Shown: piece by piece, positions 1-38,114 of the stretch
Layout: each line of letters begins with the position of its first letter
Position numbering within the stretch: position 1 is the stretch's first letter
Made by a program: the position numbers and the translations under genes
Notes under the pieces: model-generated
What the model was told of the DNA's origin: nothing
The model's database searches: none
Seen by the model: only the letters and a program-made list of their open reading frames with translations
Origin: an uncultured Bacteroidota bacterium
Lineage (GTDB): Bacteria; Bacteroidota; Bacteroidia; Chitinophagales; Chitinophagaceae
Assembly (NCBI GenBank): GCA_963779325.1
Contig: CAVZXS010000011.1
Coordinates: forward strand, 400,858 to 464,857
Reading direction: 5' to 3'
Length of the DNA stretch: 64,000 bases

Positions 1-85
1 GCCGTTAACCACCTTCGAAACTTCAATCAGGCTTCGATATGCATACCTTGAAAAATTTTTAGAAAATACTTTTTTCCGCAGCAGC

Positions 86-673
86 TTGGGCAGCCCCTAT
101 CCCGTTGCCGATTTATTTATTACCAAAGGAACATCCGGTGTTTTAAAAAGCAGTTATAATTATACAAAAATTTCGGCCAGCGTAGCTGATTATATAAAAA
201 TTCCGCCATTGGGCAGTATTGATTTTATGATTTATGGCGGCCGTACATTCGGTACGCTTCCCTATGTACTGTTAGATATACACCCGGGGAATGAATTGTA
301 TTATTATAACAAGTATGCTTTTAATACCATGAACCGATGGGAATATATAAGCGATAAATATGCGGGCATTAATGTTGAACATAATATCGGCAACGGAATT
401 TTTAAAATATTCCCGAAATTAAAACTGCGGCAATTTTGGAATGTAAAAACTTTATGGGGCAGCCTCAGCGAAGCAAACAAGGCATTGAATTTTAAAAATG
501 GCAATACATTTCAAACCCTCGACGGAAAAACATTTATGGAAGTGGGTACAGGCATCAGCAATATACTTCGCGTATTAAGGTTAGATTTTGTGTGGCGTGT
601 ATTTCCCCGTCCGTTGCCTGCGCAAAAAAGCGGCCGCTTTGGTATTTACGGAAGTTTCAGGGTAGGTTTTTAA
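86..673 (+). CDS. hypothetical protein; possibly the C-terminal part of an outer-membrane beta-barrel protein whose start may lie upstream of the window
   Basis: 195-aa ORF beginning close to window edge; aromatic-rich C-terminus ending ...GSFRVGF resembles OM beta-barrel termini; no diagnostic motif recognised. Confidence 0.35.
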   Translation: MGSPYPVADLFITKGTSGVLKSSYNYTKISASVADYIKIPPLGSIDFMIYGGRTFGTLPYVLLDIHPGNELYYYNKYAFNTMNRWEYISDKYAGINVEHNIGNGIFKIFPKLKLRQFWNVKTLWGSLSEANKALNFKNGNTFQTLDGKTFMEVGTGISNILRVLRLDFVWRVFPRPLPAQKSGRFGIYGSFRVGF

Positions 674-805
674 TTTTAAATATCTCCCAAAGTCTTTTAA
701 CCGGGAAGGCGGTAAGACGGAAAGATTTTTAAATCGACAACTCAACACTTATCGTGTTACCGGCTTCTCCGCAGAATAGGCTCTTAGATAATCAGTAAAT
801 AAAAA

Positions 806-829
806 AACCACCCCGAATGCGGAGTGGTT
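806..829. terminator. bidirectional hairpin between convergent genes
   Basis: AACCAC-CCG-aatg-CGG-GTGGTT stem-loop flanked by A-run upstream and A/T-rich downstream, lying between the + gene ending at 673 and the - gene ending at 978. Confidence 0.45.
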
Positions 830-977
830 AAAAATTATAAAATTTTTTTATTCAGCAGGACAAGGTATTATAAAACCATCTTGATTTACTAAGTAGTCCA
901 AAGGACTACGTGGAATTCTTAGATGGTATTATGCCGACGTAGAACCGCTTTGAACTAAGTAGTGTTTATATTCGGCA

Positions 978-3440
978 TTAGTTAGTGTTTCCGATACCGC
1001 CGCCGCCTTGTGTTCTTTTCTTTTCTTCTTCGGCAGCTTCTTTACGTTGACGTGCAGCCTTCACCTGCGCATTACCAAATCTGTAAGTAAGATTCAATCG
1101 TAGTTGACGGCTTTCCCAGTTACCGCTTGCCGTAGTTACCTGGCCTGCAAAACGGCTGGTACCTTTCCAGCGTTGTGTAAAGAAAATATCGGTTACAGAT
1201 GCTTTCAGGTTGCCTTTTCCTTTAAATATTGTTTTTTGCAAACCTCCGTCTACACTGTAGATAGCTTTGCTTTCAAATGTTCCCTGCCAGATAGAAGGTG
1301 ATGCGTAGAAACCGCTCAGTTCTGCCCTCCATCCTTTTTTACCCAGGGTGAAAGAGTTTTGCATAAAGAAAGTATAAGCAAATACATCTAAATTAATTTT
1401 ACGATTGCCGCCGCCAAAATCTGCTACATACTTGGAATAATAGCTGTTTACATTAAAGAAAGCGCCGTACCATTTCCATTGAAAAGGATAGCTGATATTC
1501 AAACTGATGATATCTTGTGTAGCAAGGTTTTGTTTAGAAATAAAGCTTTTAGATTTCTCCGCTGTATCTATCAACTGTGTAAACACATCTGAAACATGAC
1601 TGTAATTTAAAGCGGTAGTCAATTTGTATTTATATGTATTGGTTATTCCAATTGTATTGGTATACTGCGGACGAAGCTGTGTATTTCCTTTTTGGAAAGT
1701 ATATTCATCCAATTTAAATTCAAAAGGATTTAAATCCTGGTATGCCGGCCTGTCTATACGACGGCTGTAAGATATTCCCCATTGATTCGTCGGTTTTTTA
1801 TTAAACGTAATGGCCGCACTCGGAAATAAACCGCCGTAATTTCTCTTAAACGGATCAATATTAATATCCCTGTTTACAGAACCATCGGCATTTAAGGGAT
1901 AAGAATCGCCGGTGGCGGTTGTATGTTCATAACGCAGGCCTGCCTGTATCATAAATCCTTTAAACGGGCGGTTATAATTAATATAGGCTGCGTTAATATT
2001 TTCGCTGTAATCAAATTGGTTACTGCGGCTCAGGTCAAGTAATTTATTATTACCCGTAACATTATAACGCCCAAAATTATTGCCTGTATTTACCAATGAA
2101 GATTTTACACCCAACCCCAACTTACCTTTTTTATAATTCTGTTCGTAATCAGCCTTTATTGTATAAATATCAATATCGGTAGGAGCTATAAAATTGTAAA
2201 TAAATTTATCCAACTCACTTCCGTCAGGTTTAAAATAATAATTAGGTTGAATTTGATTACTTTTTAACCTGAATAAGCCATAGTCCGCATCTACATTCAG
2301 TTCGCGACCCGCAGTATCGGTATAGCGATAGTTAAGATTTAAGTTTACATTATTTCGGTCGTTTTGGGTGGAGTTATCAGCAATAAGTTTCCTGTCGACA
2401 ATACCGGTGGGTATAAAAGAAATAGGCGTAACACTGTAATTCATAAACTCATTATCGGAAATATTACCGTTTACCACTACACCTATAGTATTTTTCTTAT
2501 CAATAGTATAATCAAGCCCGGCTTTAAACCCGTGGTTGGTATTCAGCATCTTCATATTCGATTTTTGATCGAATAATGTATCCAGTTGCTGACGATAGAG
2601 ATTGAACCTGTTATTATTTAATCCGTGATTAAAATTATAGTTGCCAAACACGTTCACATTTTTATTACGGTGGTTCAGCGATAAGCCTGCATTGTACTTG
2701 CCGTATATACCGATATTATATCCTGCATTTACAGAGCCATTGGTACCGAAGTTTTTATTCTTTTTCAACCTGATATTAATTATACCCGCATTACCGGCCG
2801 CATCATATTTAGCCGACGGGTTTGTAATAATTTCGATAGCCTCTATTTGCGAAGACTGCATATTTTTAAGGTAAGCAGCCAAATCGGCGCCGGCAATGGG
2901 TGTTGGTTTACCGTCAATATAAACCTGCACGCCATTTTTACCGGCAAGGCTTATATTTTCATCTTTATCTACCAATACACCGGGTGATTTGCGCAACAGC
3001 TCCAACGCATCATTACCAACCGCATTAATGGTACCTTCTACATTCAGAATAGTTTTATCCGCTTTCACCTCTATCATCGGCTTCCTGGATGTAACGGTGA
3101 CAGCTTTTAAATCGCCTGAAAGTTTGGTCAATTGCAAGTCGGGCAAATTTATATCTCCTGAGCCGGAAAGCTCAAATACCTTTGAATAACCGGATGAGTG
3201 ACCTACATGAGATGCATTAATAAGGTATGAACCCGGTTTGTCTCCGTTAAAAATAAATTGTCCGTCTGCCTTTGTTACCGCCAATTTTACAACCGAAGAA
3301 TCTTTTGCATTTAAAAGAGAAACGGTGGCTTTTTCTACCGCTTTCCCTTGCACATCCTTTACACTGCCCGAAATTTGTTGCGCTTTTGCGGCAAAAACAG
3401 CCAAAACTGAAAAACTCAACAACGTAAAAATCTTTTTCAT
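978..3440 (-). CDS. TonB-dependent-receptor-like outer membrane protein (N-terminal carboxypeptidase-regulatory-like domain plus large beta-barrel)
   Basis: 820 aa, signal peptide MKKIFTLLSFSVLAVFAAKAQ, N-terminal CarbopepD_reg-like segment, long Asn/Tyr/Gly-rich beta-strand-alternating barrel region, C-terminal charged tail. Confidence 0.7.
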   Translation of the reverse strand: MKKIFTLLSFSVLAVFAAKAQQISGSVKDVQGKAVEKATVSLLNAKDSSVVKLAVTKADGQFIFNGDKPGSYLINASHVGHSSGYSKVFELSGSGDINLPDLQLTKLSGDLKAVTVTSRKPMIEVKADKTILNVEGTINAVGNDALELLRKSPGVLVDKDENISLAGKNGVQVYIDGKPTPIAGADLAAYLKNMQSSQIEAIEIITNPSAKYDAAGNAGIINIRLKKNKNFGTNGSVNAGYNIGIYGKYNAGLSLNHRNKNVNVFGNYNFNHGLNNNRFNLYRQQLDTLFDQKSNMKMLNTNHGFKAGLDYTIDKKNTIGVVVNGNISDNEFMNYSVTPISFIPTGIVDRKLIADNSTQNDRNNVNLNLNYRYTDTAGRELNVDADYGLFRLKSNQIQPNYYFKPDGSELDKFIYNFIAPTDIDIYTIKADYEQNYKKGKLGLGVKSSLVNTGNNFGRYNVTGNNKLLDLSRSNQFDYSENINAAYINYNRPFKGFMIQAGLRYEHTTATGDSYPLNADGSVNRDINIDPFKRNYGGLFPSAAITFNKKPTNQWGISYSRRIDRPAYQDLNPFEFKLDEYTFQKGNTQLRPQYTNTIGITNTYKYKLTTALNYSHVSDVFTQLIDTAEKSKSFISKQNLATQDIISLNISYPFQWKWYGAFFNVNSYYSKYVADFGGGNRKINLDVFAYTFFMQNSFTLGKKGWRAELSGFYASPSIWQGTFESKAIYSVDGGLQKTIFKGKGNLKASVTDIFFTQRWKGTSRFAGQVTTASGNWESRQLRLNLTYRFGNAQVKAARQRKEAAEEEKKRTQGGGGIGNTN

Positions 3441-3637
3441 AATAAATCCTTGTTTTTTGGTTAATGTGCCCCAAAACTAACTTGACAATGCCGTGACAAA
3501 ATTGGAAATCCGACAAAAGGCTTAAAAATGGTTATGAATGGTTTAAATCGTTTCGCCAACTGTTTTAAAAAAATAAATTATATCCTGTCTTTTTTTCAAT
3601 CGTTTTACCAATATTTGCAACTCAAACATTTATAAAT

Positions 3638-4015
3638 ATGAATTTTCCTGCGGAACTTAAGTATACAAAAGATCATGAATGGGTTAGATTGGAAGGCGAT
3701 ATAGCCACCGTGGGTATTACCCAATTTGCCCAGGGCGAATTAGGGGATATTGTGTATGTAGAAGTAGAAACGATTGGTAAAGAATTGGAAGCAGGAGAAA
3801 TTTTCGGAACTGTAGAGGCTGTGAAAACGGTTTCTGATTTGTACCTGCCGGTAAAAGGTATCGTACTGGAATTAAATGCTTCTTTAGCAGGAGCACCCGA
3901 ATCTATAAATAATGACCCGTATGGTGCAGGTTGGATGATAAAGATGAAAGTAAGTGACCCTGCCGACGTAGCTGCTTTGATGGATGCTGCTGCTTATGAA
4001 GCATCTGTTGCCTGA
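3638..4015 (+). CDS. gcvH: glycine cleavage system protein H
   Basis: 125 aa; starts [17 protein letters not shown], lipoyl-lysine context [11 protein letters not shown]; classic GcvH length and motifs. Confidence 0.9.
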
Positions 4016-4107
4016 TTTTCTATAAACACTGCTAATTGCTTGTACTGAAGCGGCTGTAACCAAACGGTCGCTTTTTTTAATACATAAACAAATGATTTCT
4101 TATAAAA

Positions 4108-4503
4108 ATGAATGGATGGATGAAAAATTTGAAACCTTCTTTTTTACCGGCCGGTTTATGGCTTATTATTTCCACGGTACTCCTTACTTTGCCCGGCACT
4201 GCTTTTCCAAAAGAGGATTGGCTGAGCAAGATATGGTTTGACAAATGGGTACATATAGGTATGTTTTTTATAATGGTAGTACTTTTTTGTTGGGGTATCC
4301 TCGCAAAGAATCAGTTTCGGCAAAAGCTCAGTCAATATTTTTTATTAGCAGCCTTTATTTGCCTGGTTTACGGTGCAATAATGGAATTTGTTCAGGATAA
4401 TTTTATTCCCAACAGAGGATTTGATACCGGCGATATAATAGCAGATGCGGCGGGATGCTTAGCGGGATGGTTGTTTTCCGTCAAAAGGTTACTAAAAAAA
4501 TAG
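4108..4503 (+). CDS. VanZ-like family membrane protein
   Basis: 131 aa, 4 predicted TM helices, DKWVHIGMFF / AGCLAGW segments typical of VanZ-like proteins. Confidence 0.7.
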   Translation: MNGWMKNLKPSFLPAGLWLIISTVLLTLPGTAFPKEDWLSKIWFDKWVHIGMFFIMVVLFCWGILAKNQFRQKLSQYFLLAAFICLVYGAIMEFVQDNFIPNRGFDTGDIIADAAGCLAGWLFSVKRLLKK

Positions 4504-4524
4504 ACCCCTGTAGAAACAGGGGTC
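4503..4524 (+). terminator. terminator-like hairpin directly after vanZ-like stop (no U-tract)
   Basis: perfect 8-bp stem GACCCCTG-tagaaa-CAGGGGTC starting at the TAG stop. Confidence 0.45.
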
Positions 4525-4910
4525 GCAACCAAAACTAACTGCTTATGAGAAAATCGTGAGCTTTATATTTTTATATATCGCGAATTATTTATTTTATTCT
4601 TCGTTACTATTACAACGCAAATTTACTGCCATTGTTTCAATCTATTGTGTTAACAAATCTCTAAAGCTTAAAGTATTTTTCCTATCGTTCAAATACTATC
4701 TAACCTTAGGACTTTCACTTTACTTCCGTACAACTGCAAAGCTTTAAAAATAAGAGCTTTATTAATAAACGCAGTCCTTACAAAATTGTTGTACCGGAAT
4801 AAAAATTGTCTTTAAAGCTTAACCCTTCTCGTTACTTGCTGACAAATCAATGACGTAAAGAACTGTTACGAAATAGAAGATGCAAGAATGCTGCCAATTT
4901 CACAAAAGAA

Positions 4911-4947
4911 AAAGCCGCTATTAAAAAAATAACGGCTTTTTTTATTT
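4911..4947. terminator. hairpin with flanking A- and T-runs (weak, long loop)
   Basis: AAAGCCG ... CGGCTTT followed by TTTTTTTATTTT; lies just downstream (on the - strand) of the CDS 4972..5619. Confidence 0.4.
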
Positions 4948-4971
4948 TAAGACTTAAATCCCGAAATAATT

Positions 4972-5619
4972 TTAACCTCCTATAAGCCCTTTCAACATAT
5001 CCATTATACCACCACCCGGGCTCTGAACCTGCCGCTGCTGATTTTGCTGTGCGCCGCCCGTTACCTTACTTATTATATCCTGTAAGTTAAAACCCCCACC
5101 GCCGCCATTTCCGCCACCATTGCCGGTAAACTTGCTCAAAATATCTTGAAAATCAAACCCACTGCCACCGCCTGCTTCTGCAGGTTGAGCAGTTTCTACA
5201 TTACCACCTGTAAGAGCACGAATAATACCATTCATGTCAAAAGAATTATCATTAGGATCTTTCGTTTTGCTTATTAAGCCATTTAAAACATTGGGAATAA
5301 GATTGCTTGCAATACCGCTTGCCGCACTGCTGTTTAGCCCAAAATTTTTCATCAGCTTACTCATAAAATGACCGGCCATCATATTTACAATCGGGTTGGA
5401 CATAATGCCGTTGCCTTGTTGGTTATTTTGACCGCCGCCGGAAAATAACTGCATTATATTTTGCAAACCGCCACCGGCCAATACATTTTGTAACCCGCTT
5501 ACTACTGTATTGGTAGCCTCGGCAGTTGCTTCATTATTACGTTCGTTAGGTATAGCAGGATTGTCTATTATTTCTTTTCCGGCATATTGTTTAACTAAGT
5601 TGAAAAGTTGCTCAATCAT
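4972..5619 (-). CDS. Gly/Asn/Gln-rich low-complexity hypothetical protein with internal repeats
   Basis: 215 aa; repeated FDFQDILSKFTGNGGG / FNLQDIISKVTGGAQQ units and runs of G; no enzymatic motif. Confidence 0.5.
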   Translation of the reverse strand: MIEQLFNLVKQYAGKEIIDNPAIPNERNNEATAEATNTVVSGLQNVLAGGGLQNIMQLFSGGGQNNQQGNGIMSNPIVNMMAGHFMSKLMKNFGLNSSAASGIASNLIPNVLNGLISKTKDPNDNSFDMNGIIRALTGGNVETAQPAEAGGGSGFDFQDILSKFTGNGGGNGGGGGFNLQDIISKVTGGAQQNQQRQVQSPGGGIMDMLKGLIGG

Positions 5620-5697
5620 TGTATTTAATATTTAATTGGTGAAAAAATAATTAGAGGGAAAAGGTAGTAAAAAGGTTGTGATGCAAAAAAATAATCT

Positions 5698-6763
5698 TTA
5701 CTGTTGTGTTACCATTTTTTCCGAGTTCTCGGCAAACTGCAGCGCATCTATAAATTCCTGTATGTTTCCGTTCAAAACATCGTCAAGGTTATAAACGGTA
5801 AGCCCGATACGGTGATCGGTAACCCTACCCTGCGGAAAATTATAGGTTCTGATTTTTGCACTTCGGTCGCCTGTACTTACCAAGCTCTTACGCTGACGCG
5901 AAATCTCATCCTCCTGCTTGCGTACCTGCTCTTCGTATAACTTGGTACGCAGCATATTCATAGCTTTCTCGCGGTTGCCAAGCTGGCTTCGCTCCGTTTG
6001 GCAAACTACCACCACACCGGTAGGTATATGGGTTAAAAAAACTTTCGTTTCCACCTTGTTTACATTCTGCCCGCCGGCACCACCGCTCCTGGCCGTTTCC
6101 ATTTTTACATCACTCTCTTTCAATTCAAAATCTACTTCTTCAGCCTCAGGCATTACCGCTACGGTAGCGGCACTTGTGTGCACACGGCCGCTGGCTTCTG
6201 TATCAGGCACCCGTTGTACACGGTGTACACCGCTCTCAAATTTCAAGCGTACCATATACATCATCGCCGGTTACTTCCAATTGTACTTCTTTGTACCCGC
6301 CAACAGTGCCTTCACTTTCGCTGAGTATGGCTGTTTTCCATCCTCTTCTTTCGCAATATTTCAGGTACATTCTCAATAAATTGCCGGCAAATAAACTGGC
6401 TTCATCGCCACCTGTACCTGCACGTATTTCAAGTATAGCATTCTTTTCATCCTGCGGGTCTTTTGGTATCAGCATCTGGCGGATGACAGATTCCATTTTT
6501 TCTTTTTTTAATTCCAGTTCCGGCGCCTCAGCTTTAGCCAAATCTCTCATTTCCTCATCATCGCCGTTCAGCGCTTCTTTATAAAAATCTATATCCTCCA
6601 GAATTTTTCTGTACTCGTTATAAGCAGTCACAATTTTTTCCAGGCTGCGGTACTCTTTGCTGGTAGCTGTAAATTTTTTATTATCGTTTACAATCTCCGG
6701 GTTGGTAAGGGCAACACCCAAATTATCAAATCTTGCTTTTATTGCTTCTAACTTATCTAACAT
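5698..6763 (-). pseudogene. prfA: peptide chain release factor 1 (RF1), reading frame interrupted by a 1-nt indel near 6236-6264
   Basis: N-terminal ORF 6236..6763 (..[25 protein letters not shown]) and C-terminal ORF 5698..6264 ([42 protein letters not shown]) together recreate full RF1 (GGQ motif, [15 protein letters not shown] are RF1-type); junction CTTGAAATTTGAGAGC restores LKFESG if one base is removed. Confidence 0.85.
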
Positions 6764-6947
6764 TGAATCTGTATTTTTATGTCGTCAACTTATTATTTAC
6801 TATCATCGTCCCTTGCGTCGCACACTTGTACACCGGCAATTCTATTCAGCGCAGTCGAATACATTTTTCCGTATTCAATCATCTGCAATCAGAAAGGTCA
6901 ATATGCGCAGTTACCAATCGGACGAAGGGCAGCAAAGTTAACAATCT

Positions 6948-24999: not shown

Positions 25000-27900
25000 A
25001 TGAGAAAAAATCTACTCCCCCTATTCATTCTCCTTTTTTATACCAAATTAATAAATGCGCAAGCTAAAGATGATCCGATAGAACTTAAAAATTTATCGGT
25101 AAGCATTAAAGCGGACTTGTTTACAGCCATTACAACACTCAACATGGAATTTTATAATCCCAATGCAAAAGTGCTGGATGGTGAGTATAATTTTTCATTA
25201 AAAGACGGGCAAGTGATTACAGGCTTTGCATTGGACATTAACGGCTTCATGCGTGAAGGCGTAATCGTAGATAAACAAAAAGGCAGAGTAGCGTATGAAA
25301 ATATAATCCGGCGGCGTGTTGACCCGGGTTTATTGGAAATGACTGCAGGCAATAATTATCGCGTAAGAGTTTATCCAATGCCTTCCAAAGGAGCCAGGAA
25401 AATAAAAATAATAATTACCGAACTTCTTTCTATAAAAGAAAATGCATTGCAATACAATTTGCCGTTGGATTTTTCATATCCCGTCAGGCAGGTTAAAGTT
25501 GATATTGCGGCTGAAACCGATGATATTTTGCCCTTAACAAATGATGGTCTTTTGAAAAAATCAGTTTTTTCAAAAAGTAATTCACAGTTTATTCTTCAGT
25601 ATGACGAAAAAAATACTGAAATAAAAAAGCCCGTATCCTTTCGTATTCCGCTTGATTCGAAGAGGAAAATTTTATGTAAACAAACAACGGATAGTGTAAC
25701 CCGATTTGCAATTCATTTAAAACCTGAAATGGAAAATTCAAAAGCGGCTTCTTTTTCATCGGCAACTGTTTTTTGGGATATATCATCCTCTGCCGCTCAA
25801 ACGGGATATCAAAAAGGATATTCAATTTCTTGAAAACATAATTGAGGAAAAAGAACTTGGTGATCTTACCGTTGTCACATTTAGTAATGCGGTTCATGAG
25901 GTAAAAGATTTCAAGGGCAAATCGATTGTTAATGCAGTACGCAGGTTTCTGTCTTCACAAATAACAGATGGCGGCACACAGCTGGGCTCAATTGATTGCA
26001 GCAGGTTTGATTCAGATGTTTATTTTTTGTTTAGCGACGGCTTGAGCAATTTCGGGAGCGATAAAATAAATACAACACAAAAACCTGTTTATTGTATTTC
26101 ATCCTCCGCAACAACAAATCAAACTTTACTCAAAAGAATTGCTGAACAAACAGGCGGGCGATACATAGACCTTTACTCAACTGAAATAAAAAAAGCAATA
26201 AATGAATTCAACAGTTTACAAAAAATATTGCTTTATGTTCAGTCAGCCAATAAAATGATTGCTGCAAATCTATCAATGCCGATAGCGTTTGATGATTGGG
26301 TAACATTTTCAGGAGAAATAAATGCAAAAACAGATACACTAATATTCGCTTTTGGCGATAACGGGCAAGTGCTAAAAACCGAAACGGTTTATCTTAATGG
26401 GATTGAAACATGTGTATCTGAATCGCCCGGCACCATAAATATTTTGCAACAGTATGAAAAAATATTAAAAGACAATGATGAAACCGTTTTACTGCCTTTT
26501 GCCAAAAAGAATAAATTGGTATCGACGGTTTCGTCTTTCATTGTATTGGATAACTTAGAAGATTATATCCAGTATGGAATAGAACCGCCATCCGATTTGG
26601 CTGATGAATATAATAAGCGGTTGTATGTAGTAAAACAAAAAGAAGAGCAACAGAAAATAGACGAAACCAATGCGGTAATTAATAACCTGAGGAAAACAGT
26701 TGCTTTATATAATGACCGTATTACCTGGTGGGATAAAAATGAACCGCTAATCAGCTTACAGGAAGTTGAAAAAAAGAATGAAGAGCGGTTGTCGATTAAT
26801 AACAATTCGAACGCTGATCAAAATGAAATATCAGAAAAGTCCAATAACAACGACAATGCTGATGTTTTTAAACTAAGCACTAATTCATTAAACGAAGTAG
26901 TTGTGGTTGGTTACGGAACTCAACAAAGAAGAGATATAACGGGATCCGTAGCTACTATTCGTTCTTCCGAATTTGCAAATTCAGGTACACTGAGTGTACA
27001 ACAGGCATTACAAGGGAAAGTAGCAGGGCTGATGGTTGTACAAAATAACGGATCACCCGGAATTGCTCCCAAAATTTTTATTCGCGGAGTCGGAACATTA
27101 GGTGCCAATAGAGAACCGCTTTATATATTGGATGGCATGCCTGTTGACGGAGATTTTATCGCTACTATTAATGTAAACGATATTGAAAGCTGTAAGCGTG
27201 TATAAAGATATACAGGCAAGTGCATTATTTGGCAGTCGTGCAAGTAACGGAGCTATTGTAATTACAACAAAAAGGGGTTTCAGAAACAGCAATCAATACT
27301 TACAGGGTGTAGCCAAGTATAAAGATTTGGATGATGTAGAATATGTTACAGAGTTGAAGGAAGTCGATAAAACAATGATTTATAAAAATTACCTGGGGAT
27401 GAAAGACAGCTTAGGTAAAGAACCTGCTTTTTATTTTGATGTAGCCCAGTTACTGTTTGAATCAGGTGATAAAGAAAAGGCGTTTCGGGTTTTAACAAAC
27501 CTGGCAGAGCTTGATAATGAAAGCCATCAATTGCTCCGTGCCATGGGTTATGTACTGGAAAGTTGGAAGATGGATGATGAAGCGGTTTCAGTTTATAAAA
27601 AAGTCTTACTGATAAAAGAAGAAGAGCCGCAATCATACAGGGATATTGCATTGGCATATGAAAGAAAAGGAGATCATCAGCAGGCAGTTGATATTTTATA
27701 CACCTGTCTTACAAAAAATTGGTATCAATATGAAGCAAGGTACAGGGGCTTAAAATCATTATTGCTGAATGAAATGAATGCAATCATATTGCAACAAGGT
27801 AAAATATTGGATCTTTCAAAGATTAACGGAGGCGTTATTAAACCGTTACCTGTTGATCTGCGTATTGTTATTGACTGGAATAAAGATGAAACGGATATTG

Positions 27901-28214
27901 ACTTGCACATAATTGAACCGGGTGGTCAAGAGTGTTCTTATCAAAATCATAATACTAAGAACGGAGGTCGGCTGTCAGAAGATTTTACCCAAGGCTATGG
28001 TCCCGAAGAATACCAAATAAAAGAAGCTAAAAAAGGCAAGTATGCAATACGGGTAAAATATTATGGAGACAGGTACCAAAAGCAGCAGGTACCATCTTTT
28101 ATTAAACTGACGATTTATAAGAATTTCGGAAGACCTGATCAATCTGTAAAAATTGAAAACTTAATTATGGACTATCAAACGGGGATGGTTGAAATAGGAG
28201 AAGTTAAGTTCTAA
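25000..28214 (+). pseudogene. large multidomain protein (VIT domain, vWA domain, TonB-plug-like segment, TPR region, C-terminal DUF2135-like domain) broken into three ORFs by two frameshifts
   Basis: ORF1 25000..25833 (VIT-like; ...VFWDISSSAAQ then shifts), ORF2 26027..27205 reads back without stops to ~25800 in the +1 frame, ORF3 27183..28214 continues in another frame (IVITTKRG plug-like motif, TPR-like helices, DLHIIEPGGQECSYQNH...YYGD DUF2135-like). Confidence 0.6.
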
Positions 28215-28308
28215 AAAATATTTTCTAAAAAATTCTTTGCAAAAAGTTGGCAGTATCAAAAAAATAAATTCATCTTTGCACCGCAAAACAAAATTTAAAA
28301 AACAAAAC

Positions 28309-28401
28309 ATGTTACACATACAGCTACATATTGAGTCGGTGAATTGGTTTAGTCCTAAGGGTGACTATACAGTTTGCGGGGCATGTTATGCTGATGAATA
28401 A
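28309..28401 (+). CDS. candidate small peptide ORF (30 aa) MLHIQLHIESVNWFSPKGDYTVCGACYADE, followed by a strong terminator
   Basis: ATG at 28309, stop 28399-28401; below the ORF-track size cutoff; terminator at 28429-28456. Confidence 0.3.
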   Translation: MLHIQLHIESVNWFSPKGDYTVCGACYADE

Positions 28402-28428
28402 GTTAAACCGAATTCGATATAACACAGG

Positions 28429-28456
28429 CCCCGTAAGTGATTGCGGGGTTTTTTTT
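28429..28456 (+). terminator. rho-independent terminator
   Basis: CCCCG-taagtgatt-gCGGGG followed by TTTTTTTT. Confidence 0.65.
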
Positions 28457-28596
28457 GGCCCCGCCTAAATCCTCCCCAAAGGGGAGGACTTGAGAAAAAC
28501 TTAAAACTGTGCATTGTTTTGTGTAAAACAAACAGAATTGAATCTATAATAACATAAAAAATAAAAGTGCTGAAACAATTTAAACATAAACGATTT

Positions 28597-28725
28597 ATGA
28601 AACTGAATGATTCGTTATCATCGACAGGATGCTATTGGTATGTGCCGGCGGGCAGAAGTATTGAACCCATAGGCAATGAGAATGATAATAAACATATACG
28701 ACCGAGTTGTGCCCAAACACAGTAA
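28597..28725 (+). CDS. candidate small peptide/leader ORF (42 aa) MKLNDSLSSTGCYWYVPAGRSIEPIGNENDNKHIRPSCAQTQ
   Basis: ATG 28597, TAA 28723-28725; its 3' end overlaps the upstream arm of an antiterminator-like stem. Confidence 0.3.
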   Translation: MKLNDSLSSTGCYWYVPAGRSIEPIGNENDNKHIRPSCAQTQ

Positions 28726-28746
28726 ACTGTGTTTGAATAATAAGAA

Positions 28747-28775
28747 CCCGGTCGTATAAAACGACCGGGTTTTTT
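28747..28775 (+). terminator. rho-independent terminator with competing upstream pairing (attenuator-like)
   Basis: CCCGGTCGT-ataaa-ACGACCGGG plus TTTTTT; the CGGTCGTATA segment can alternatively pair with TATACGACCG at 28695-28704. Confidence 0.6.
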
Positions 28776-28875
28776 GTACCCCTAACCCCTAAAGGGGGAT
28801 AAAAAGCTCAGCAGGTCGTACATGAATTAAATAATTGGAAAATCCTTTTTGGGGAAGGGCTAAGGAAGGTAAGTG

Positions 28876-29013
28876 ATGAAATTTTTATTAGCAGTATTGG
28901 CTATTCATTTTATAATTGAATTGATCAACAATAAAAGAAAATCGGGGGAAGAGAATATAGAGAATGAGATGAATGAAAAAATTATTCATCCGTCGGAATA
29001 CAGCATAAGATAA
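28876..29013 (+). CDS. candidate small membrane protein (45 aa) MKFLLAVLAIHFIIELINNKRKSGEENIENEMNEKIIHPSEYSIR
   Basis: hydrophobic N-terminal helix then charged tail; terminator hairpin 29041-29073 follows. Confidence 0.35.
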   Translation: MKFLLAVLAIHFIIELINNKRKSGEENIENEMNEKIIHPSEYSIR

Positions 29014-29040
29014 AAGTATTAGATGCAGAAAGGAGGAATA

Positions 29041-29073
29041 AGTGCTCCCCGTGAGATGCAGCGGGGACACTTT
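29041..29073 (+). terminator. terminator hairpin GTGCTCCCCG..CGGGGACAC plus TTTT
   Basis: imperfect 9-bp stem with U-tract. Confidence 0.5.
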
Positions 29074-29210
29074 TAAAAGCCCCTATCCTCCAAAGGGGAT
29101 GATGAAAGTGAATACGGTTTGGTGTATGGTAACATATTCTTCTCCCTTTCTTTCTGAAAGGAAAATAGCAGGAGAAAGTTTTCGGTTCAAATCCGGAAGC
29201 CGTACAATGG

Positions 29211-29281
29211 TGGCTTATAGTTCAACGGAAGAATGCTGTGCTACGAACGCAGTGATATAAGTTCGAGTCTTATTAAGCCAA
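29211..29281 (+). tRNA. tRNA-Arg (ACG), AT-rich divergent
   Basis: clean cloverleaf: acceptor TGGCTTA/TAAGCCA, D arm GTTC-AACGGAA-GAAT, anticodon arm CTGTG-CTACGAA-CGCAG, T arm ATAAG-TTCGAGT-CTTAT. Confidence 0.6.
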
Positions 29282-29326
29282 CAAAAGTTGATGACCTGTA
29301 GCTTAAGTTTTTCAGTCATCACAAAA

Positions 29327-29401
29327 TGGTTCGTAGCTCAATTGGATTAGAGCTTCCGGTTTTTACCCGGAAGGTTGTGAGTTCGAATCTCACCGGGCCA
29401 A
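29327..29401 (+). tRNA. tRNA-Lys (TTT), divergent (two G-U pairs in acceptor)
   Basis: acceptor TGGTTCG/CGGGCCA, D arm GCTC-AATTGGATTA-GAGC, anticodon arm TCCGG-TTTTTAC-CCGGA, T arm GTGAG-TTCGAAT-CTCAC. Confidence 0.55.
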
Positions 29402-29405
29402 CAAA

Positions 29406-29483
29406 GGGAATATAGTTCAACGGCAGAATCCCGCACATGCGGGATTAAGCCATCAGATGAATGTTCGAATCATTCTGTTCCCG
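29406..29483 (+). tRNA. tRNA-like pseudogene (acceptor, D and T arms intact; anticodon arm replaced by a 6-bp/4-nt-loop hairpin)
   Basis: GGGAATA...TGTTCCC acceptor, GTTC-AACGGCA-GAAT D arm, GAATG-TTCGAAT-CATTC T arm, but central TCCCGC-ACAT-GCGGGA cannot form a 7-nt anticodon loop. Confidence 0.35.
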
Positions 29484-29487
29484 CAAT

Positions 29488-29574
29488 TGTGAGTTCGACA
29501 AAGATGGAGAGTTGTAGCAGACTGTAAATCTGTTGTTCAAAATACTGAGATGGTTCGAATCCATCCGCTCACAC
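29488..29574 (+). tRNA. tRNA-Tyr (GTA), class II, slightly non-canonical spacing
   Basis: anticodon arm GCAGA-CTGTAAA-TCTGT matches the bacterial tRNA-Tyr anticodon arm; long variable region; T arm GATGG-TTCGAAT-CCATC; acceptor TGTGAGT/GCTCACA. Confidence 0.45.
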
Positions 29575-29577
29575 AAT

Positions 29578-29661
29578 GGAGAGAGTCCGGTTGGTCGAGG
29601 AAGCTGTCTTGAAAACAGACCGGGTGTAATAGCCCCAAGAGTTCGAATCTCTTTCTCTCCG
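29578..29661 (+). tRNA. tRNA-Ser (TGA), class II
   Basis: acceptor GGAGAGA/TCTCTCC, anticodon loop CTTGAAA, T arm AAGAG-TTCGAAT-CTCTT (same T arm as E. coli tRNA-Ser UGA), long variable arm. Confidence 0.6.
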
Positions 29662-29816
29662 CCGGTGAAAACATCCCCTCCACGGAGGGGCGAGTTGAGG
29701 AAAACATATTGCTATAGGAGACCGGGGTGGGTTGCTGAATAGCCATATGCAGCACAAGTGTGCGACGCAAGGGACGATGACCGGAGTTACTACAGCCGGT
29801 AACAAAAAAATAGTTT

Positions 29817-29901
29817 GGAGAGTTGACAGAGTGGTAATGTAATGGCCTGCTAAGCCATACATCGTTTATTCGGTGCAAAGGTTCGAATCCTTTACTCTCC
29901 G
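29817..29901 (+). tRNA. tRNA-Ser (GCT), class II
   Basis: acceptor GGAGAGT/ACTCTCC, anticodon arm ATGGC-CTGCTAA-GCCAT, T arm AAAGG-TTCGAAT-CCTTT, long variable arm. Confidence 0.65.
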
Positions 29902-29962
29902 CTTTAATCAACAAAGCTTTAGCGAAGTTGATAAATTGTTTGACAATGGGTGAATTCGATAG

Positions 29963-29982
29963 CCTGCCTGCCGGCAGGCAGG
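29963..29982. repeat. perfect 20-bp palindrome CCTGCCTGCCGGCAGGCAGG
   Basis: near-identical 21-bp copy at 30269-30289. Confidence 0.7.
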
Positions 29983-30015
29983 TGAGGAAATAGTAATCAA
30001 TCAATACTCATTTCA

Positions 30016-30087
30016 AACAACCGGACGAATAGCTCCAATGGCAGAGCAGCGGTTTGAAGCACCGTGGTTATAAGTTCGAGTCTTATT
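30016..30087 (+). tRNA. tRNA-Phe (GAA)
   Basis: canonical 72-nt cloverleaf: acceptor GGACGAA/TTCGTCC, D arm GCTC-CAATGGCA-GAGC, anticodon arm GCGGT-TTGAAGC-ACCGT, T arm ATAAG-TTCGAGT-CTTAT (identical T arm to the tRNA-Arg at 29211). Confidence 0.65.
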
Positions 30088-30253
30088 TCGTCCGCGTAGA
30101 AAAGTACAATAAGAAAAAAGATGAATAAAGAACAAATGTCGAATGGAGCGTCGCCAATGTCGCTATATCAGGGAACAGAAGTTGGAAAACAAAATACTCC
30201 TTCGCTAAAGCTACGGAGTACAAGAAAAATTTAAATACCCTGCGGGGAAAACA

Positions 30254-30766: not shown

Positions 30767-30984
30767 ATCCCTTAAAGGGGACATCGGGCCGTTGATAACT
30801 GAATGAATCTTAAAATAATCATAAGCCTTTTAAGCCTCCCCTTTGGGGCAGGTTTAGAGGGGCTACAAAAAGCTTGCCTAACGGCAAGATGGTCATTAGT
30901 ATGTTGCCGGCAAACCGGATGAGTGTTTTTAAAACACCATAGTACAGACGTAGTAACTATCTGTATGCTGTTGCATCAATATGC

Positions 30985-31170
30985 AGTGTCCACCATACTC
31001 TGTGGGTCAAGGGTTCGATTCCCTTTCACTTTTACTAGTGGTAGCTCAGTTGGTTAGAGCAACAGAAAGCAGCGCCGGTTCGACTCCGGCTCCGACACAA
31101 CTCGGATAGTTCAGTGGTAGAACACTACGTTTAGGACGTGGAAGTCGGAAGCTATCGCCACTTCCTTAAA
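30985..31170 (+). other. cluster of tRNA-derived fragments / pseudo-tRNAs
   Basis: T-arm remnant AAGGG-TTCGATT-CCCTT (31007-31025) with no matching acceptor; D-arm-plus-T-arm unit TAGCTCAGTTGGTTAGAGC...GCCGG-TTCGACT-CCGGC (31041-31090) lacking an anticodon arm; D-arm unit TAGTTCAGTGGTAGAAC (31108-31124) with non-canonical 3' part. Confidence 0.35.
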
Positions 31171-31451
31171 AAGGCGACTAACTAAAAGCAGGTGTTGCTT
31201 TCCCGATGAATTGTAAATGCCGGGGTGAAAACCGGAGTTAACAAAACATCAATTTGATTAACACCAGAAAAATGCAATGCCGTTATACTACAGGTTGCAC
31301 TTAAACAATGTTGAATTACTGACAACAAGTTCAGTAAAAAATATAGTTTAACTGTTTCTTTAAAAATAACTAAAGGTATTTTCCGTGAGAATGAAATGGA
31401 AAGCAGCGCCTGCTTTATTAAAACAAACTTGAAAATTTAAAATAGAAGACA

Positions 31452-33566: not shown

Positions 33567-34322
33567 TTGTCTTTAAATGAACATTCTCTGTATTGCAAAT
33601 GTTCTGCTGCTTCAAATGATGACCTAAGCATTGTTCATTCTGGAATACAGGTCTTTGGTGAAAAGGTTGGTAAAATGGAGCTTCTATTAAATAGATTAAA
33701 GTCAGAATTTCACTTGGCAAGAAAACTACACTTTGAGAGTTTCAGTAAAACCGTCGATAAAGAGGAAATATTTTTTAGCGAGCTAATGGACAAAGAAATG
33801 ATAGGAGAAGAAGTAGAAAAATTGAGAATAGCTTTTAGAATGTGCTTTGGCATATTTGACAAAATAGCGCATGGAATTTGTTACTTTTTTGAATTGCCGA
33901 AAAAAAAGAATGAAAATATCTATTTTGAAATTTTGGGATAATGGCAAATGTCCGAAAGGTGGAAGAAATTAAAAGATTTACAAAATCCGCATTTAGTGGC
34001 TTTATATAGCATTGCAAATGATTTTAATAACCGTCAAGGTGAGTTTAATTTCTACAAAGTATGGAGAAACAAATTTGAGCATAATAACTTAATATTAGTC
34101 GATAAAACTGACGAATTGGATTTACTTAAACTTTTTGATGATGAAGAATTTATAAGTAAGGTTTCGTTTTCTTTTTTCAAAGAACAAGCATTACATCTGT
34201 TGCAGATTTGTTGTTCTGCCATATATAGTTATACTTATTTGGTACGAACTGAAAGTATGCAGAGTAATAATGACGTGAATTATATTCCGTTTAGTATTAA
34301 ACCTAAAACTAAATCAATCTAA
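33567..34322 (+). pseudogene. hypothetical protein split by a single in-frame TAA (33939-33941); ORFs 33567..33941 and 33948..34322 share one reading frame
   Basis: both ORFs are in frame 0 and separated only by TAA-TGG-CAA before the next ATG. Confidence 0.35.
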
Positions 34323-34724: not shown

Positions 34725-35714
34725 TTGTATCAATTTGTCAGTACTAATCAACCTGAGTATGCTGTACAGCTGCAGTGCCGTGTGTTGGGCTGCAGCCGCA
34801 GTGGATATTACAGTTGGTGTTCGGGAAAAATACATCAGCCAAATGAAAAAATAAAAAAAATGGAACAACAGGTGATAAAAATATTTCAGGAACATCGCCG
34901 CCGCTATGGTGCCCGGCGTATAGCCAAAACGCTTCAATGCGCAGGTGAAAAGGTTAGCCGTTATAAAGCAGCAAGGATATTAAACAAGTTCGGAGTAAAA
35001 GCCATACAGCCCCGCAGCTTTGTTCCTAAAACAACGGACAGTCGCCACGCATATAAAATCAGTCCTCTGTTATTATTGGACAAGCCTAAGCCCGGCAAAC
35101 CTAATGAAGTATGGGTGGGTGATATTACTTACCTCCCGTTGTCGGGCGGCCAATGGTGTTATATGGCCGTATGGATGGATTTGTTTTCCCGGAAAATTAT
35201 TGGCTGGCACATTGATGATAACATGCAGGAGGCATTGATAACAACAGCATTTAAAAAAGCAGTAAGTACCAGAAGTATTGAACAGGGATTGATTGTTCAT
35301 TCCGACAGAGGAGGTCAATATGCAGGCAATGCGTTTAGAAAAATGATAGCAGCCAATAATATGCTGCAAAGCATGAGCCGCGCAGACAACCCCTATGATA
35401 ATGCCGCTATGGAATCTTACTTCAGCCGCTATAAGGCGGAGCTGTTGCAATATGGAATATTTGATAACCTGCAAGATGCCCGGACAGAAACATTCGAGTA
35501 TATAGAAATGTACTACAACACCAAACGGATACATTCATCGCTGGACTATAATAATCCCATGCAATACGAACAAATTTATGAACAAAACAATAACTTTATG
35601 CCGGACAAACAAACGGCGATGCTTTATAATGAAGAATCGTCTTTTATTGAAAGGGGCATCGAGCCCCTTTCAATAAAGCACAAACAAACAGGCTCAGCAT
35701 TACCCAAAGAATAG
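34725..35714 (+). CDS. IS3-family transposase OrfB (DDE integrase core), expressed as OrfAB fusion by -1 ribosomal frameshift
   Basis: rve-type core VWVGDITYLPLSGGQWCYMAVWMDLFSRKIIGW...HSDRGGQYAGNAF...; reading the -1 frame from the A7G motif joins OrfA to this frame without stops. Confidence 0.85.
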   Translation: MYQFVSTNQPEYAVQLQCRVLGCSRSGYYSWCSGKIHQPNEKIKKMEQQVIKIFQEHRRRYGARRIAKTLQCAGEKVSRYKAARILNKFGVKAIQPRSFVPKTTDSRHAYKISPLLLLDKPKPGKPNEVWVGDITYLPLSGGQWCYMAVWMDLFSRKIIGWHIDDNMQEALITTAFKKAVSTRSIEQGLIVHSDRGGQYAGNAFRKMIAANNMLQSMSRADNPYDNAAMESYFSRYKAELLQYGIFDNLQDARTETFEYIEMYYNTKRIHSSLDYNNPMQYEQIYEQNNNFMPDKQTAMLYNEESSFIERGIEPLSIKHKQTGSALPKE

Positions 35715-36868: not shown

Positions 36869-38114
36869 TTGATAGTTGAAAGAAGAAAGGTAACTGGAAA
36901 TTCCATTAAGGAAAAAGGCGTGGAGTACAATGTTTTTGGTGCCAAGCATATTGAAGAGGGTGCTTTGCTGCAAATGCAAATAGCTGCTAAATTACCCGTG
37001 GCTGTTGCCGGTGCATTGATGCCGGATGCACACCAGGGCTACGGCTTACCGATAGGCGGTGTATTGGCAACAGATAATGCCGTTATTCCGTATGCGGTGG
37101 GTGTGGATATTGGTTGCAGAATGTGTCTAAGCATTTTTGCCATCAATCCCGATGAGTTGAAAAAGAGAGAAGCTAATTTTCAACGGGAGTTAGTGGCCAA
37201 TACATTGTTTGGTGCAGGAAGAGAATTCAGTACCGAACACTGAACATGAAGTACTGGACAGAAAAGAATTTACTGAAATAAATTTCTTGCAACCATTGCA
37301 GCATAAAGCATTAAAGCAATTGGGCAGCAGCGGCAGCGGTAATCACTTTGTAGAGTTTGGTAAAGTAGAAATTACGGACGAGAACAACCCGATGGGATTA
37401 CCGGTTGGTAATTATGTTGGTTTGTTAAGTCATAGCGGCAGCCGCGGTTTGGGCGCCACCATTGCCAATCACTATACACAAATTGCCATGCAAAAAACAC
37501 CGTTGCCGAAAGAAGCCAAGCATTTAGCATGGCTTGGGTTGGATACTGAAGAAGGAATGGAATACTGGCTGGCCATGAATTTGGCGGGTGATTATGCTTC
37601 TGCCTGTCACCATACCATACATGCAAAAATTGCAAAAGCCATTGGTGAAAAACCGTTAGCCATGGTTGAGAACCATCACAACTTTGCATGGAAAGAAATG
37701 TATGAAGGAAAAGAAGTGATTGTACACCGTAAAGGTGCTACACCTGCGGGTAAAAATGTATTGGGAATAATTCCGGGCAGTATGACGGCACCGGGCTTTA
37801 TAGTAAAAGGTAAAGGTGAATTGACTTCTTTAAATTCTGCAAGCCATGGCGCCGGGAGAAAAATGAGTCGCAGCAAAGCATTAGTCAATATTACCCATGA
37901 TGCATTGAAAAAAGAATTGAAGGAGCATGGTGTGAAATTAATAGGCGGCGGATTGGATGAAGCGCCGTTTGCTTACAAAGACATTCATGAAGTAATGCAA
38001 TGCCAAACAACGTTGGTAGATGTACTGGGGAAATTTTACCCGGTTATTGTACAAATGGATGGTAATGATCCAAGAAAACACAGGAAGAGAAGGGATGAAG
38101 TAGCAGGTGAATAG
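36869..38114 (+). pseudogene. rtcB: RNA-splicing ligase RtcB, split by a frameshift near 37209-37243
   Basis: N-terminal ORF has MPDAHQGYGLPIGGV..AVGVDIGCRM; C-terminal ORF has GSGNHFVEFG, LLSHSGSRGLG, HHNFAW, HRKGAT, IIPGSMTAPGFIVKG, SASHGAGRKMSR - all hallmark RtcB motifs. Confidence 0.85.

Follow-up and report, generated by a model that had tools for sequence, protein, structure and literature searches.

Candidate tandem ribosome-dependent attenuators in a conserved leader ahead of a tRNA array and RNA-repair genes in soil Chitinophagales

Examination of a 64,000-nucleotide (nt) stretch of contig CAVZXS010000011.1, from an uncultured bacterium of the Chitinophagaceae (the whole stretch is referred to here as the window), reveals three consecutive short open reading frames (ORFs) between positions 28,309 and 29,073, each with a hairpin located just downstream of it. 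We refer to these ORF and hairpin pairs as units 1, 2 and 3, and their coordinates are listed in Table 1. A reading made from the sequence alone had proposed that ORFs of 30, 42 and 45 amino acids (aa) are each followed by their own terminator, and that they could be precursors of ribosomally synthesized and post-translationally modified peptides (RiPPs) or bacteriocins, leader-peptide attenuators, or small membrane toxins. All three ORFs and all three hairpins are indeed present where it located them, and comparison with related loci indicates that they are conserved parts of a leader of about 750 bases in soil Chitinophagales. Upstream of the leader in the window is a VIT/vWA/Plug/TPR/DUF2135 gene that is broken across several frames, and downstream, on the same strand, are a tRNA array, a YkuK gene, a conserved non-coding region containing tRNA-like modules, and then genes for SPFH, HEPN (split), an IS3-type transposase and RtcB (split).

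The flanking DUF2135 protein was used to fetch relatives, leading to Chitinophagales genomes, and the whole intergenic region is kept in four genome loci (L001, L002, L008 and Flavisolibacter L006), with nucleotide identities of about 70% across the intergenic region and 51–74% identity in the flanking protein. A 22-nt hairpin core that is invariant in the window and these four loci was then used as an exact-match bait for metagenome loci, and 58 were recovered, mainly from soil and rhizosphere; because the bait demands an exact match, these are close and non-independent relatives. Throughout the four genome and 58 metagenome loci, all from Chitinophagales, units 1, 2 and 3 are in constant order and have the same neighboring genes. 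Separate look-ups, for which YkuK or ORF2-like peptides were the starting point, reached the same arrangement, including one in a complete 5.5-Mb genome, in which the leader is followed by 10 tRNAs, YkuK, an AAA ATPase, SPFH and RtcB. A scan of viral contigs for the hairpin gave no matches, and there is thus no sign of a phage origin.

Table 1. Coordinates of the leader features and of the first elements downstream (window positions; SD, Shine-Dalgarno sequence)
Feature	Position	Strand	Description
Promoter-like site P1, Bacteroidota type	28246..28278	+	-33 element GTTGG, 21 nt, -7 box CATCTTTG
ORF1	28309..28401	+	30 aa (MLHIQLHIESVNWFSPKGDYTVCGACYADE); A-rich start context, no SD
Hairpin A, inside ORF1	28347..28370	+	UAGUCC...GGUGACUA; RNAalifold consensus
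Unit 1 antiterminator, 5′ strand	28373..28391	+	UUUGCGGGGCAUGUUAUGC; ORF1 codons ~22-28; copies T1 3′ arm
Unit 1 antiterminator, 3′ strand	28418..28436	+	overlaps 5′ arm of T1
Intrinsic terminator T1	28426..28456	+	hairpin 28426-28451, 11-bp stem, then eight U; found by terminator scan
ORF2	28567..28725	+	52 aa (LKQFKHKRF...GCYWY...PIGNENDNKHIRP...); GTG start, mostly ATG in relatives
Unit 2 antiterminator, 5′ strand	28697..28711	+	UACGACCGAGUUGUG; ACGACCG, Arg-Pro codons; copies T2 3′ arm
Intrinsic terminator T2	28745..28775	+	hairpin 28745-28771, 11-bp palindromic stem, then U run
ORF3 with SD	28862..29013	+	45 aa; SD AAGGAAGGU (28862-28870), ATG 28876, frame 28876-29013
AGAUGCAG copy, then orphan extended SD AGAAAGGAGG	29021..29036	+	sequence conserved
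Hairpin H	29040..29074	+	stem to 29072; outer AAGUG/CACUU, bulge, inner UCCCCG/CGGGGA, loop UGAGAUGCAG, UUUU
tRNA array, decayed in window	29211..30095	+	Arg-ACG, Lys-UUU, odd tRNA, Tyr, Sec-like element, Ser-GCU, Phe
YkuK / RNase H-like gene, PF04308	30254..30766	+	Pfam E-value 3.7e-36; first protein gene of operon

Reading frames and helices of units 1 and 2

ORFs of 25 aa or more are common here, with 66 of them overlapping a stretch of 5.5 kb, so that short ORFs alone are at chance level, and 11 terminator-like sites were found in 4 kb where 3.2 are expected. The case that these features exceed chance derives from their conservation, and not from the ORFs themselves. There are several aspects to this conservation. 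First, the reading frames are maintained in the relatives. ORF1 is intact in 33 of 34 distinct loci at a length of 28–32 aa, and its dN/dS (the ratio of nonsynonymous to synonymous substitution, calculated throughout as a pooled Nei-Gojobori value) is 0.49 in frame versus 1.23 and 0.91 in the other frames; ORF2 is intact in 38 of 40 loci at 50–60 aa, with a dN/dS of 0.58 in frame versus 0.85 and 0.76. Second, insertions and deletions (indels) are more often multiples of three inside the ORFs than outside of them, both for ORF2 (10 of 15 inside, 10 of 39 outside) and for ORF1 (4 of 8 inside, 6 of 27 outside). Third, the start codons of ORF1 and ORF2 are conserved, and the copies of ORF1 share a single aligned start codon. 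The 42-aa version of ORF2 in the sequence-only reading begins at an ATG at 28598, and although that frame exists the ATG is not conserved, the conserved start being at 28567. Expression signals in the Bacteroidota are unusual, with no use of SD sequences and with distinct promoters, and the A-rich, SD-less starts of ORF1 and ORF2 are typical of the phylum. Finally, ORF1- and ORF2-like genes have already been called as hypothetical proteins in public annotations (ORF1 is called in L071), and there are 102 clusters of ORF2-like proteins in public data, all of 39–86 aa and all unnamed; three of these were looked up independently, and all three lie in this same context and none elsewhere. The ORF1, ORF2 and ORF3 peptides match no family in Pfam or NCBIfam. 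These patterns suggest that the leader ORFs are translated.

The encoded peptides are short, Cys, Tyr and Trp are among their residues, and strong terminators lie after the ORFs, a combination that could be expected of RiPP or bacteriocin precursors. However, it seems extremely improbable that this is their role. First, Pfam scans of the neighbors in the window and in related loci reveal no modification enzyme, protease, transporter or immunity gene, and no modification or export gene is near any of the loci; the neighbors are tRNAs and YkuK, SPFH and RtcB-type genes, a context of tRNAs and RNA repair. Second, the CxxC of ORF1 is not kept throughout, in that an entire lineage (eight loci) carries paired −1/+1 indels that shift the frame across the antiterminator strand described below, such that CGAC becomes AGQV. 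Third, there is the lack of any Pfam or NCBIfam match.

The terminators are also conserved, and each has a potential competitor within the preceding ORF. T1 begins 24 nt past the ORF1 stop codon and 89% of its alignment cells are paired across 34 loci. The copy of its 3′ arm located near the end of ORF1 is in the same position in all 34 loci, and the antiterminator duplex that it can form has a predicted energy of −21.3 kcal/mol in the window and a median of −22.3 kcal/mol across the 34 loci, versus −18.0 kcal/mol for the terminator. The duplex is stronger than those given by dinucleotide shuffles of the ORF (z −3.9), and in 28 of 34 loci it is matched by no more than two of 200 shuffles. Compensatory variants are present (UGUAU/AUACA, UGCAU/AUGCA and UGUG/CACA), and in alignment A2 81.5% of cells are paired, versus 37–48% with a slid partner; covariation is modest, with a score that 3 of 500 shuffles reach. 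The unit 1 RNA of the window has T1 as its minimum-energy fold at full length, and forms the antiterminator when cut before the 3′ arm. Moreover, the nucleotides GCGGGGCA are unchanged in the lineage in which the ORF1 frame is shifted, and their retention despite the frame shift argues for a constraint at the RNA level. Two further pairings lie within this unit. Hairpin A, inside ORF1, has 84.5% of cells paired, and both sides have changed in four of its nine pairs. A pairing of the 1:2 type that involves the antiterminator strand is also possible, for which the partner is consistently the start-codon region and the energy is unexceptional (z −1.3).

Unit 2 has a similar organization. T2 begins 19 nt past the ORF2 stop codon, and in the terminator scan its sole listing is for the minus strand, a consequence of its palindromic sequence, which reads as a terminator in both directions. 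Compensatory changes in T2 include a replacement of A-U by G-C at the base of the stem and of GGUCG/CGACC by GGUCA/UGACC. The antiterminator strand is at a homologous position in 28 of 33 loci and forms a duplex with the T2 5′ arm with a median of −16.8 kcal/mol versus −20.3 kcal/mol for the terminator (z −2.2), and the antiterminator appears in the consensus fold of the truncated RNA. A hairpin inside ORF2 shows compensatory changes, and there is a conserved block between T1 and ORF2. A candidate 1:2 pairing for unit 2 was rejected, as it has no consistent partner (z +0.5).

Three short stretches of the two units are almost changeless even at synonymous sites. These are TTACATATTGAA in ORF1 (codons 6–9, 28324–28335), AACCGAATTCGATA between the ORF1 stop and T1 (28407–28420) and CATAAACGATTT in ORF2 (codons 7–10, 28585–28596), and their invariance is accounted for by neither the helices nor the peptides.

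The helices raise the question of whether the ORFs are incidental to a structured non-coding leader, or a set of small RNAs, in which a switch is set by a ligand, a protein or a tRNA. The extension of nucleotide conservation to synonymous sites would be in agreement with this, as would the compensatory changes in hairpin A and in the hairpin inside ORF2, the weak coding signal of ORF2 (0.58 versus 0.76–0.85) and the nearly invariant AACGAATTCGATA between the ORF1 stop and T1. Nonetheless, we consider a purely non-coding leader improbable. The ORFs remain open at constant length in 33 of 34 and 38 of 40 loci in spite of indels, and the conserved starts, the in-frame bias of the indels and the lowest dN/dS being that of the ORF frame weigh against it as well. 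The distance from stop codon to terminator is also conserved, at 21–36 nt. Finally, there is no recognizable RNA family: Rfam 15 has no match at the gathering score in 28215–29210, with only chance-level matches up to an E-value of 10, and Rfam searches of 11 related loci gave tRNA matches only.

Transcription of the leader and a model for attenuation

The leader has a single promoter-like sequence, P1, which is of the Bacteroidota type and is invariant in alignment A1, although its −33 element is GTTGG in the window and TTTGG in relatives. In 26 of 31 loci the motif TTTG, 21 nt, nAnnTTTG lies 18–39 nt ahead of the start of ORF1; with this fixed 21-nt spacer it occurs once per leader and almost nowhere else within leaders of 520–760 nt. 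Second promoters were considered between T1 and ORF2 and between T2 and ORF3 and were rejected, as neither interval has a motif with the right spacing and the spacers are short. The gap between T2 and the start of ORF3 is 33–49 nt in most loci, and the gap between hairpin H and the first tRNA is 7–32 nt in many. With a single promoter and such short spacers, transcription has to run past T1, T2 and H to arrive at ORF3, the tRNAs and YkuK, and we infer read-through at each of these hairpins.

This organization bears on whether the three ORFs are simply independent micro-protein genes, with their own promoters and terminators and with peptides that act in trans (for example at the membrane or in stress), their adjacency to the tRNA array being mere synteny. 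There is some basis for this proposal. The peptides contain motifs that are conserved beyond what is seen in classical leader peptides (FSPKGDY; HKRF, GCYWY, PIGNEND; HPAEF.LR or NPSEHNVWW), ORF3 has both a dN/dS of 0.28 and a strong SD of its own, ORF1 and ORF2 are called as genes in public annotations, and the block between T1 and ORF2 is conserved. However, we think that such an explanation is unlikely. The promoter motif is not found beyond P1, and separate transcription is argued against by the short T2 to ORF3 spacer of most loci and by the closeness of the tRNAs to H in many, read-through being required to reach the tRNAs. Independent genes also would not account for the matched upstream copies of the terminator 3′ arms inside the ORFs, nor for an ORF1 C-terminus that is in two different frames across lineages while the nucleotides are unchanged, and ORF3 is replaceable.

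The sequence-only reading had included leader-peptide attenuation among its options, and for units 1 and 2 this is the option that is supported by a conserved ORF with a terminator, an antiterminator strand within the ORF and a single upstream promoter. In both of these units an ORF is kept between the promoter and the genes, with a terminator after it; an antiterminator that shares a strand with the terminator is clear in unit 1, weaker in unit 2 and lacking in unit 3. Although conservation of the ORFs, helices, spacing and gene order is what is observed, we propose, with slightly better than even confidence, that in units 1 and 2 a pair of ribosome-dependent attenuators stands in tandem, freeing an operon of accessory tRNAs and RNA-repair functions for transcription when translation falters. 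Translation of the ORFs, switching between the helices and the nature of the signal sensed are the inferred components of this proposal.

In the proposed mechanism the region would be the transcribed leader of one operon, consisting of the accessory tRNA array and the YkuK RNase H-like protein gene, with transcription beginning at P1 and with units 1 and 2 acting in series. In each unit the antiterminator 5′ strand, in the last third of the ORF, would pair with the 5′ arm of the terminator 20–30 nt past the stop codon. A ribosome following close behind the polymerase would cover the antiterminator strand, such that T1 or T2 forms and transcription ends; if ribosomes instead stall near the beginning of the ORF, or do not load, formation of the antiterminator would let the polymerase read through. 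Translation inhibitors, tRNA damage or tRNA shortage could each give rise to such stalling or loading failure. Two checkpoints in series would keep the operon tightly off in healthy cells. ORF3 would then be an optional gene for a small membrane peptide on the read-through transcript, and H with its orphan SD a conserved element bordering the tRNA array on its 5′ side.

The behavior of the predicted folds was examined by masking a 30-nt ribosome footprint on transcripts truncated before the 3′ arm of the terminator. In unit 1 the antiterminator holds the 5′ arm in 30–34 of 34 loci when the ribosomal A site is at codons 1–15, and in only 0–7 loci when it is at codons 19–27, the loss of this pairing extending over codons 19–29. 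In unit 2 the 5′ arm is held by upstream sequence in 32–33 of 33 loci when the ribosome is early in the ORF, and this falls from codon 43 onward.

There are, however, a number of observations that weigh against tandem attenuation. First, full-length RNAs at equilibrium mostly adopt the terminator regardless of which footprint is masked, and the antiterminator wins in at most 15 of 34 unit 1 loci and almost never in unit 2; since equilibrium folds favor the terminator, any switch must be kinetic, which is also the case for classical attenuators. Second, a ribosome positioned exactly on the ORF1 stop codon leaves the GC core of the antiterminator strand unmasked. Third, the unit 2 antiterminator is a 7-bp core that is weaker than T2, and only 10 of 33 loci are matched by no more than two of 200 shuffles. 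Fourth, the ORFs have no regulatory run of codons, the longest run of a single residue being 3–4, and residues cognate to the array tRNAs are not in significant excess (0.28 in ORF1 and 0.35 in ORF2, versus a background of 0.28). Fifth, the covariation is modest, because the sequences are very similar and the loci are close, non-independent relatives. Sixth, the peptides are conserved beyond what a classical leader peptide needs, and the stretches lacking synonymous change could reflect further functions at the RNA or peptide level. Finally, unit 3 is outside of the attenuator scheme.

A more specific proposal, in which the ORFs would sense particular codons, was rejected, there being neither a significant enrichment of cognate residues nor codon runs, and the leader being kept where the array has no tRNAs at all. 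Given the lack of regulatory codon runs, we file units 1 and 2 apart from the amino-acid attenuator class.

Unit 3 and the downstream operon

Unit 3 differs from the first two units in several respects. ORF3 is present in 37 loci with lengths of 25–46 aa, and its dN/dS of 0.28 in frame, versus 0.60 and 1.36 in the other frames, shows clear purifying selection. The predicted peptide has a conserved hydrophobic N-terminus of about 17 residues and a charged tail, with two C-terminal types among the 37 loci. A small membrane peptide is therefore plausible, as the sequence-only reading had it, but there is nothing to indicate that it is a toxin. The SD of ORF3 is strong in 18 of 30 loci, whereas a strong SD is missing from each of the 26 long ORFs examined in the window. 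The gene is also optional, and in many loci its place is taken by a gene for a 140-aa protein, by one for a 199-aa DinB_2 protein, or by nothing. The replacing protein, conserved at 140–156 aa (MFFNLF...GFAR..N), is encoded between T2 and H in L020, L031, L035, L038, L047 and L049, and the 140-aa protein matches no family in Pfam or NCBIfam; the DinB_2 protein occupies the place of ORF3 in L027, L048 and L052.

Hairpin H has a predicted energy of −20.1 kcal/mol (z −2.8), and its outer stem covaries (AAGCN/NGCUU variants), with a compensatory change of the inner stem in L068. The loop UGAGAUGCAG is identical in the window and the four genome loci, and the more distant L071 has the same stem with another loop. 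The proposal that each ORF is followed by its own terminator holds for units 1 and 2 but not for unit 3: the stem of H is followed by just four U, H is not picked up by the terminator scan, and the U run is lost in some relatives. We regard H as at most a leaky terminator. No alternative upstream partner was found that could act as an antiterminator for H, and complementarity to it is below that of shuffles (z +1.1).

H is always preceded by the orphan SD AGAAAGGAGG. The duplex of this sequence with the assumed core of the 16S tail has a median of −12.2 kcal/mol and reaches −7 kcal/mol or lower in 49 of 50 loci, whereas none of the 26 long ORFs in the window reaches −7 with the same core. A conserved start codon at SD distance downstream of it was not found. 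The GUG and AUG codons in the loop were tried and rejected as starts, being 14–19 nt away and in frames that are not conserved. Ribosomes of the Bacteroidia ignore SD sequences unless they are without bS21 (PMC7797042, PMC9976891), and in view of this the strong SDs of unit 3 are notable. Unit 3 is best read as an optional gene for a putative small membrane peptide together with a conserved hairpin preceded by an orphan SD. We can also envision, as a doubtful extension of the tandem attenuation model, a three-stage leader that reads the state of the translation apparatus, in which for the third stage an SD-competent (bS21-less) 30S subunit docks at the orphan SD and blocks H so that the polymerase passes, and the spare tRNAs, YkuK and RtcB would be turned on only if translation is damaged, for instance by anticodon nucleases or ribosome-targeting antibiotics.

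The tRNA arrays of the relatives are dense, with between 0 and 16 tRNAs in conserved order, and they vary in size even among close relatives. The most common members are Lys-UUU, Phe, Asn, His, Gln-UUG and Arg-ACG, and some of the tRNAs score low or look odd. The varying size, odd members and low scores suggest that these are accessory tRNAs. Where there are no tRNAs in the array, YkuK starts about 80 nt after H, and in nearly all loci YkuK follows either the leader or the array. The array of the window looks decayed relative to those of the relatives. It includes an odd tRNA with an abnormal anticodon loop (29406–29484) and a Tyr tRNA scoring 31.9 bits, as well as a Sec-like element (29577–29661) that is below the Rfam threshold, and there is a remnant of a tRNA 3′ end near 29180–29205.

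The operon probably continues beyond YkuK into the SPFH and RtcB RNA-repair genes. Downstream in L068, and all on one strand, are genes encoding AAA, SPFH and DinB_2 proteins, two RlaP genes, an exoribonuclease-like gene and RtcB. In the window the SPFH gene is preceded by a non-coding stretch of about 570 nt (30865–31440) whose sequence is conserved in 15 loci. Within this stretch are truncated tRNA-like modules giving weak matches to YrlA, a Y RNA-like RNA (31001–31066 and 31073–31123), and it may be a tRNA-mimic RNA of the RtcB neighborhood.

Several other features of the region were observed. In L003 the cassette is situated 8 kb further along, behind a 7-kb insertion, and since it is found beyond the insertion we do not claim a presence/absence polymorphism. 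L068, which is from the same contig, contains this 7-kb insert (1–6929) between the DUF2135 gene and the leader, which encodes, on the opposite strand, a reverse transcriptase (RVT_1), a protein of 547 aa and one of the WGR/HEAT type; the insert may be a defense-type island. Three genes of the window are split into adjacent frames, VIT/vWA/Plug/DUF2135 (25000–28214), HEPN_LA2681 (33567–34322) and RtcB (36869–38114), reflecting either decay of the locus or indel errors in the assembly, and the IS3-type transposase gene is at 34725–35714. Small palindromes rich in GC, of the CCCC(T/A)AAAGGGG type and alike in their flanks (28462–28490, 28776–28800, 29076–29100, 30767–30782 and 30829–30871), directly follow T1, T2, H and the stop codon of YkuK. 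In relatives most are missing from these places, and they look like small inserted repeat elements.

Comparison with known systems

To our knowledge, the regulation of bacterial tRNA genes, growth-rate control aside, is poorly known, and a single long array, that of Anabaena, has been studied. In the literature we found no account of leader ORFs that precede a tRNA array or an RtcB operon. If the proposed tandem attenuation is correct, it would join together accessory tRNA arrays, RNA repair and ribosome-dependent attenuation, and would provide a simple and testable sensor of translation stress in the Bacteroidota. At a practical level, annotation should record the leader and its three ORFs as regulatory features instead of passing over the latter as sub-threshold ORFs.

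The proposed organization is similar to that of the attenuators of the trpL, hisL, pheL and thrL type in having a short leader ORF, mutually exclusive terminator and antiterminator, and a choice of helix that is decided – here by proposal – by the position of the ribosome. Unit 1 also shares with the amino-acid attenuators the possible 1:2 pairing with the start-codon region. There are nonetheless clear departures. The leader described here has no regulatory codon run, the antiterminator strand is inside of the ORF rather than after it, there are two units in tandem, and the peptides are conserved in sequence; moreover, the targets are tRNAs, a nuclease and RNA repair, and not biosynthetic enzymes. 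The proposed logic also matches that of bmrB-bmrCD, the mef/msr leader and vmlR, in which stalling of a ribosome on a leader ORF, whatever its cause, relieves a terminator and activates a response to translation stress (PMC4191407, PMC4335068). Those systems differ in that they are from Firmicutes, have a single leader ORF and control resistance proteins, and for the leader described here no arrest motif or inducing drug is known.

The strong SDs of unit 3 resemble the extended SD of rpsU in the SD-blind Bacteroidia (PMC7797042, PMC9976891), which is rare and very strong, and the ORF3 and orphan SDs match it in strength. The orphan SD differs from that of rpsU in having no start codon at a working distance and in abutting a hairpin that heads a tRNA array. 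These SDs could be a second natural substrate, besides rpsU, for the study of bS21-less ribosomes.

Two other systems tie RtcB to translation. The rtcBA operon of enterobacteria is activated via RtcR when tRNA is damaged (PMC7790460, PMC10159003), and the likeness is that of an RtcB-centered repair locus which carries tRNA-like RNA and reacts when the translation machinery is harmed. In contrast to rtcBA, we saw no gene for RtcR, a sigma-54 activator or Rsr beside the cassette, and the sensor proposed here is cis-acting and ribosome-dependent. In Anabaena, translational stress induces a long tRNA array together with rtcB by way of a promoter-bound repressor (PMC8421152, PMC10272220), and both systems have a tRNA array, putatively accessory in the Chitinophagales, that is associated with RtcB and would be expected to stay silent as long as translation is unimpaired. 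The arrays described here are shorter (0–16 genes) and have a fixed chromosomal place. The repressor TrcR and direct repeats control the Anabaena trn operon at its promoter, whereas no such repeats are seen in the Chitinophagales leader, which has ORF-plus-terminator units in the transcript as its proposed control elements. If our proposal is correct, this leader would represent a second, cis-acting solution, in which ribosome traffic gates spare tRNAs and an RtcB repair cluster.

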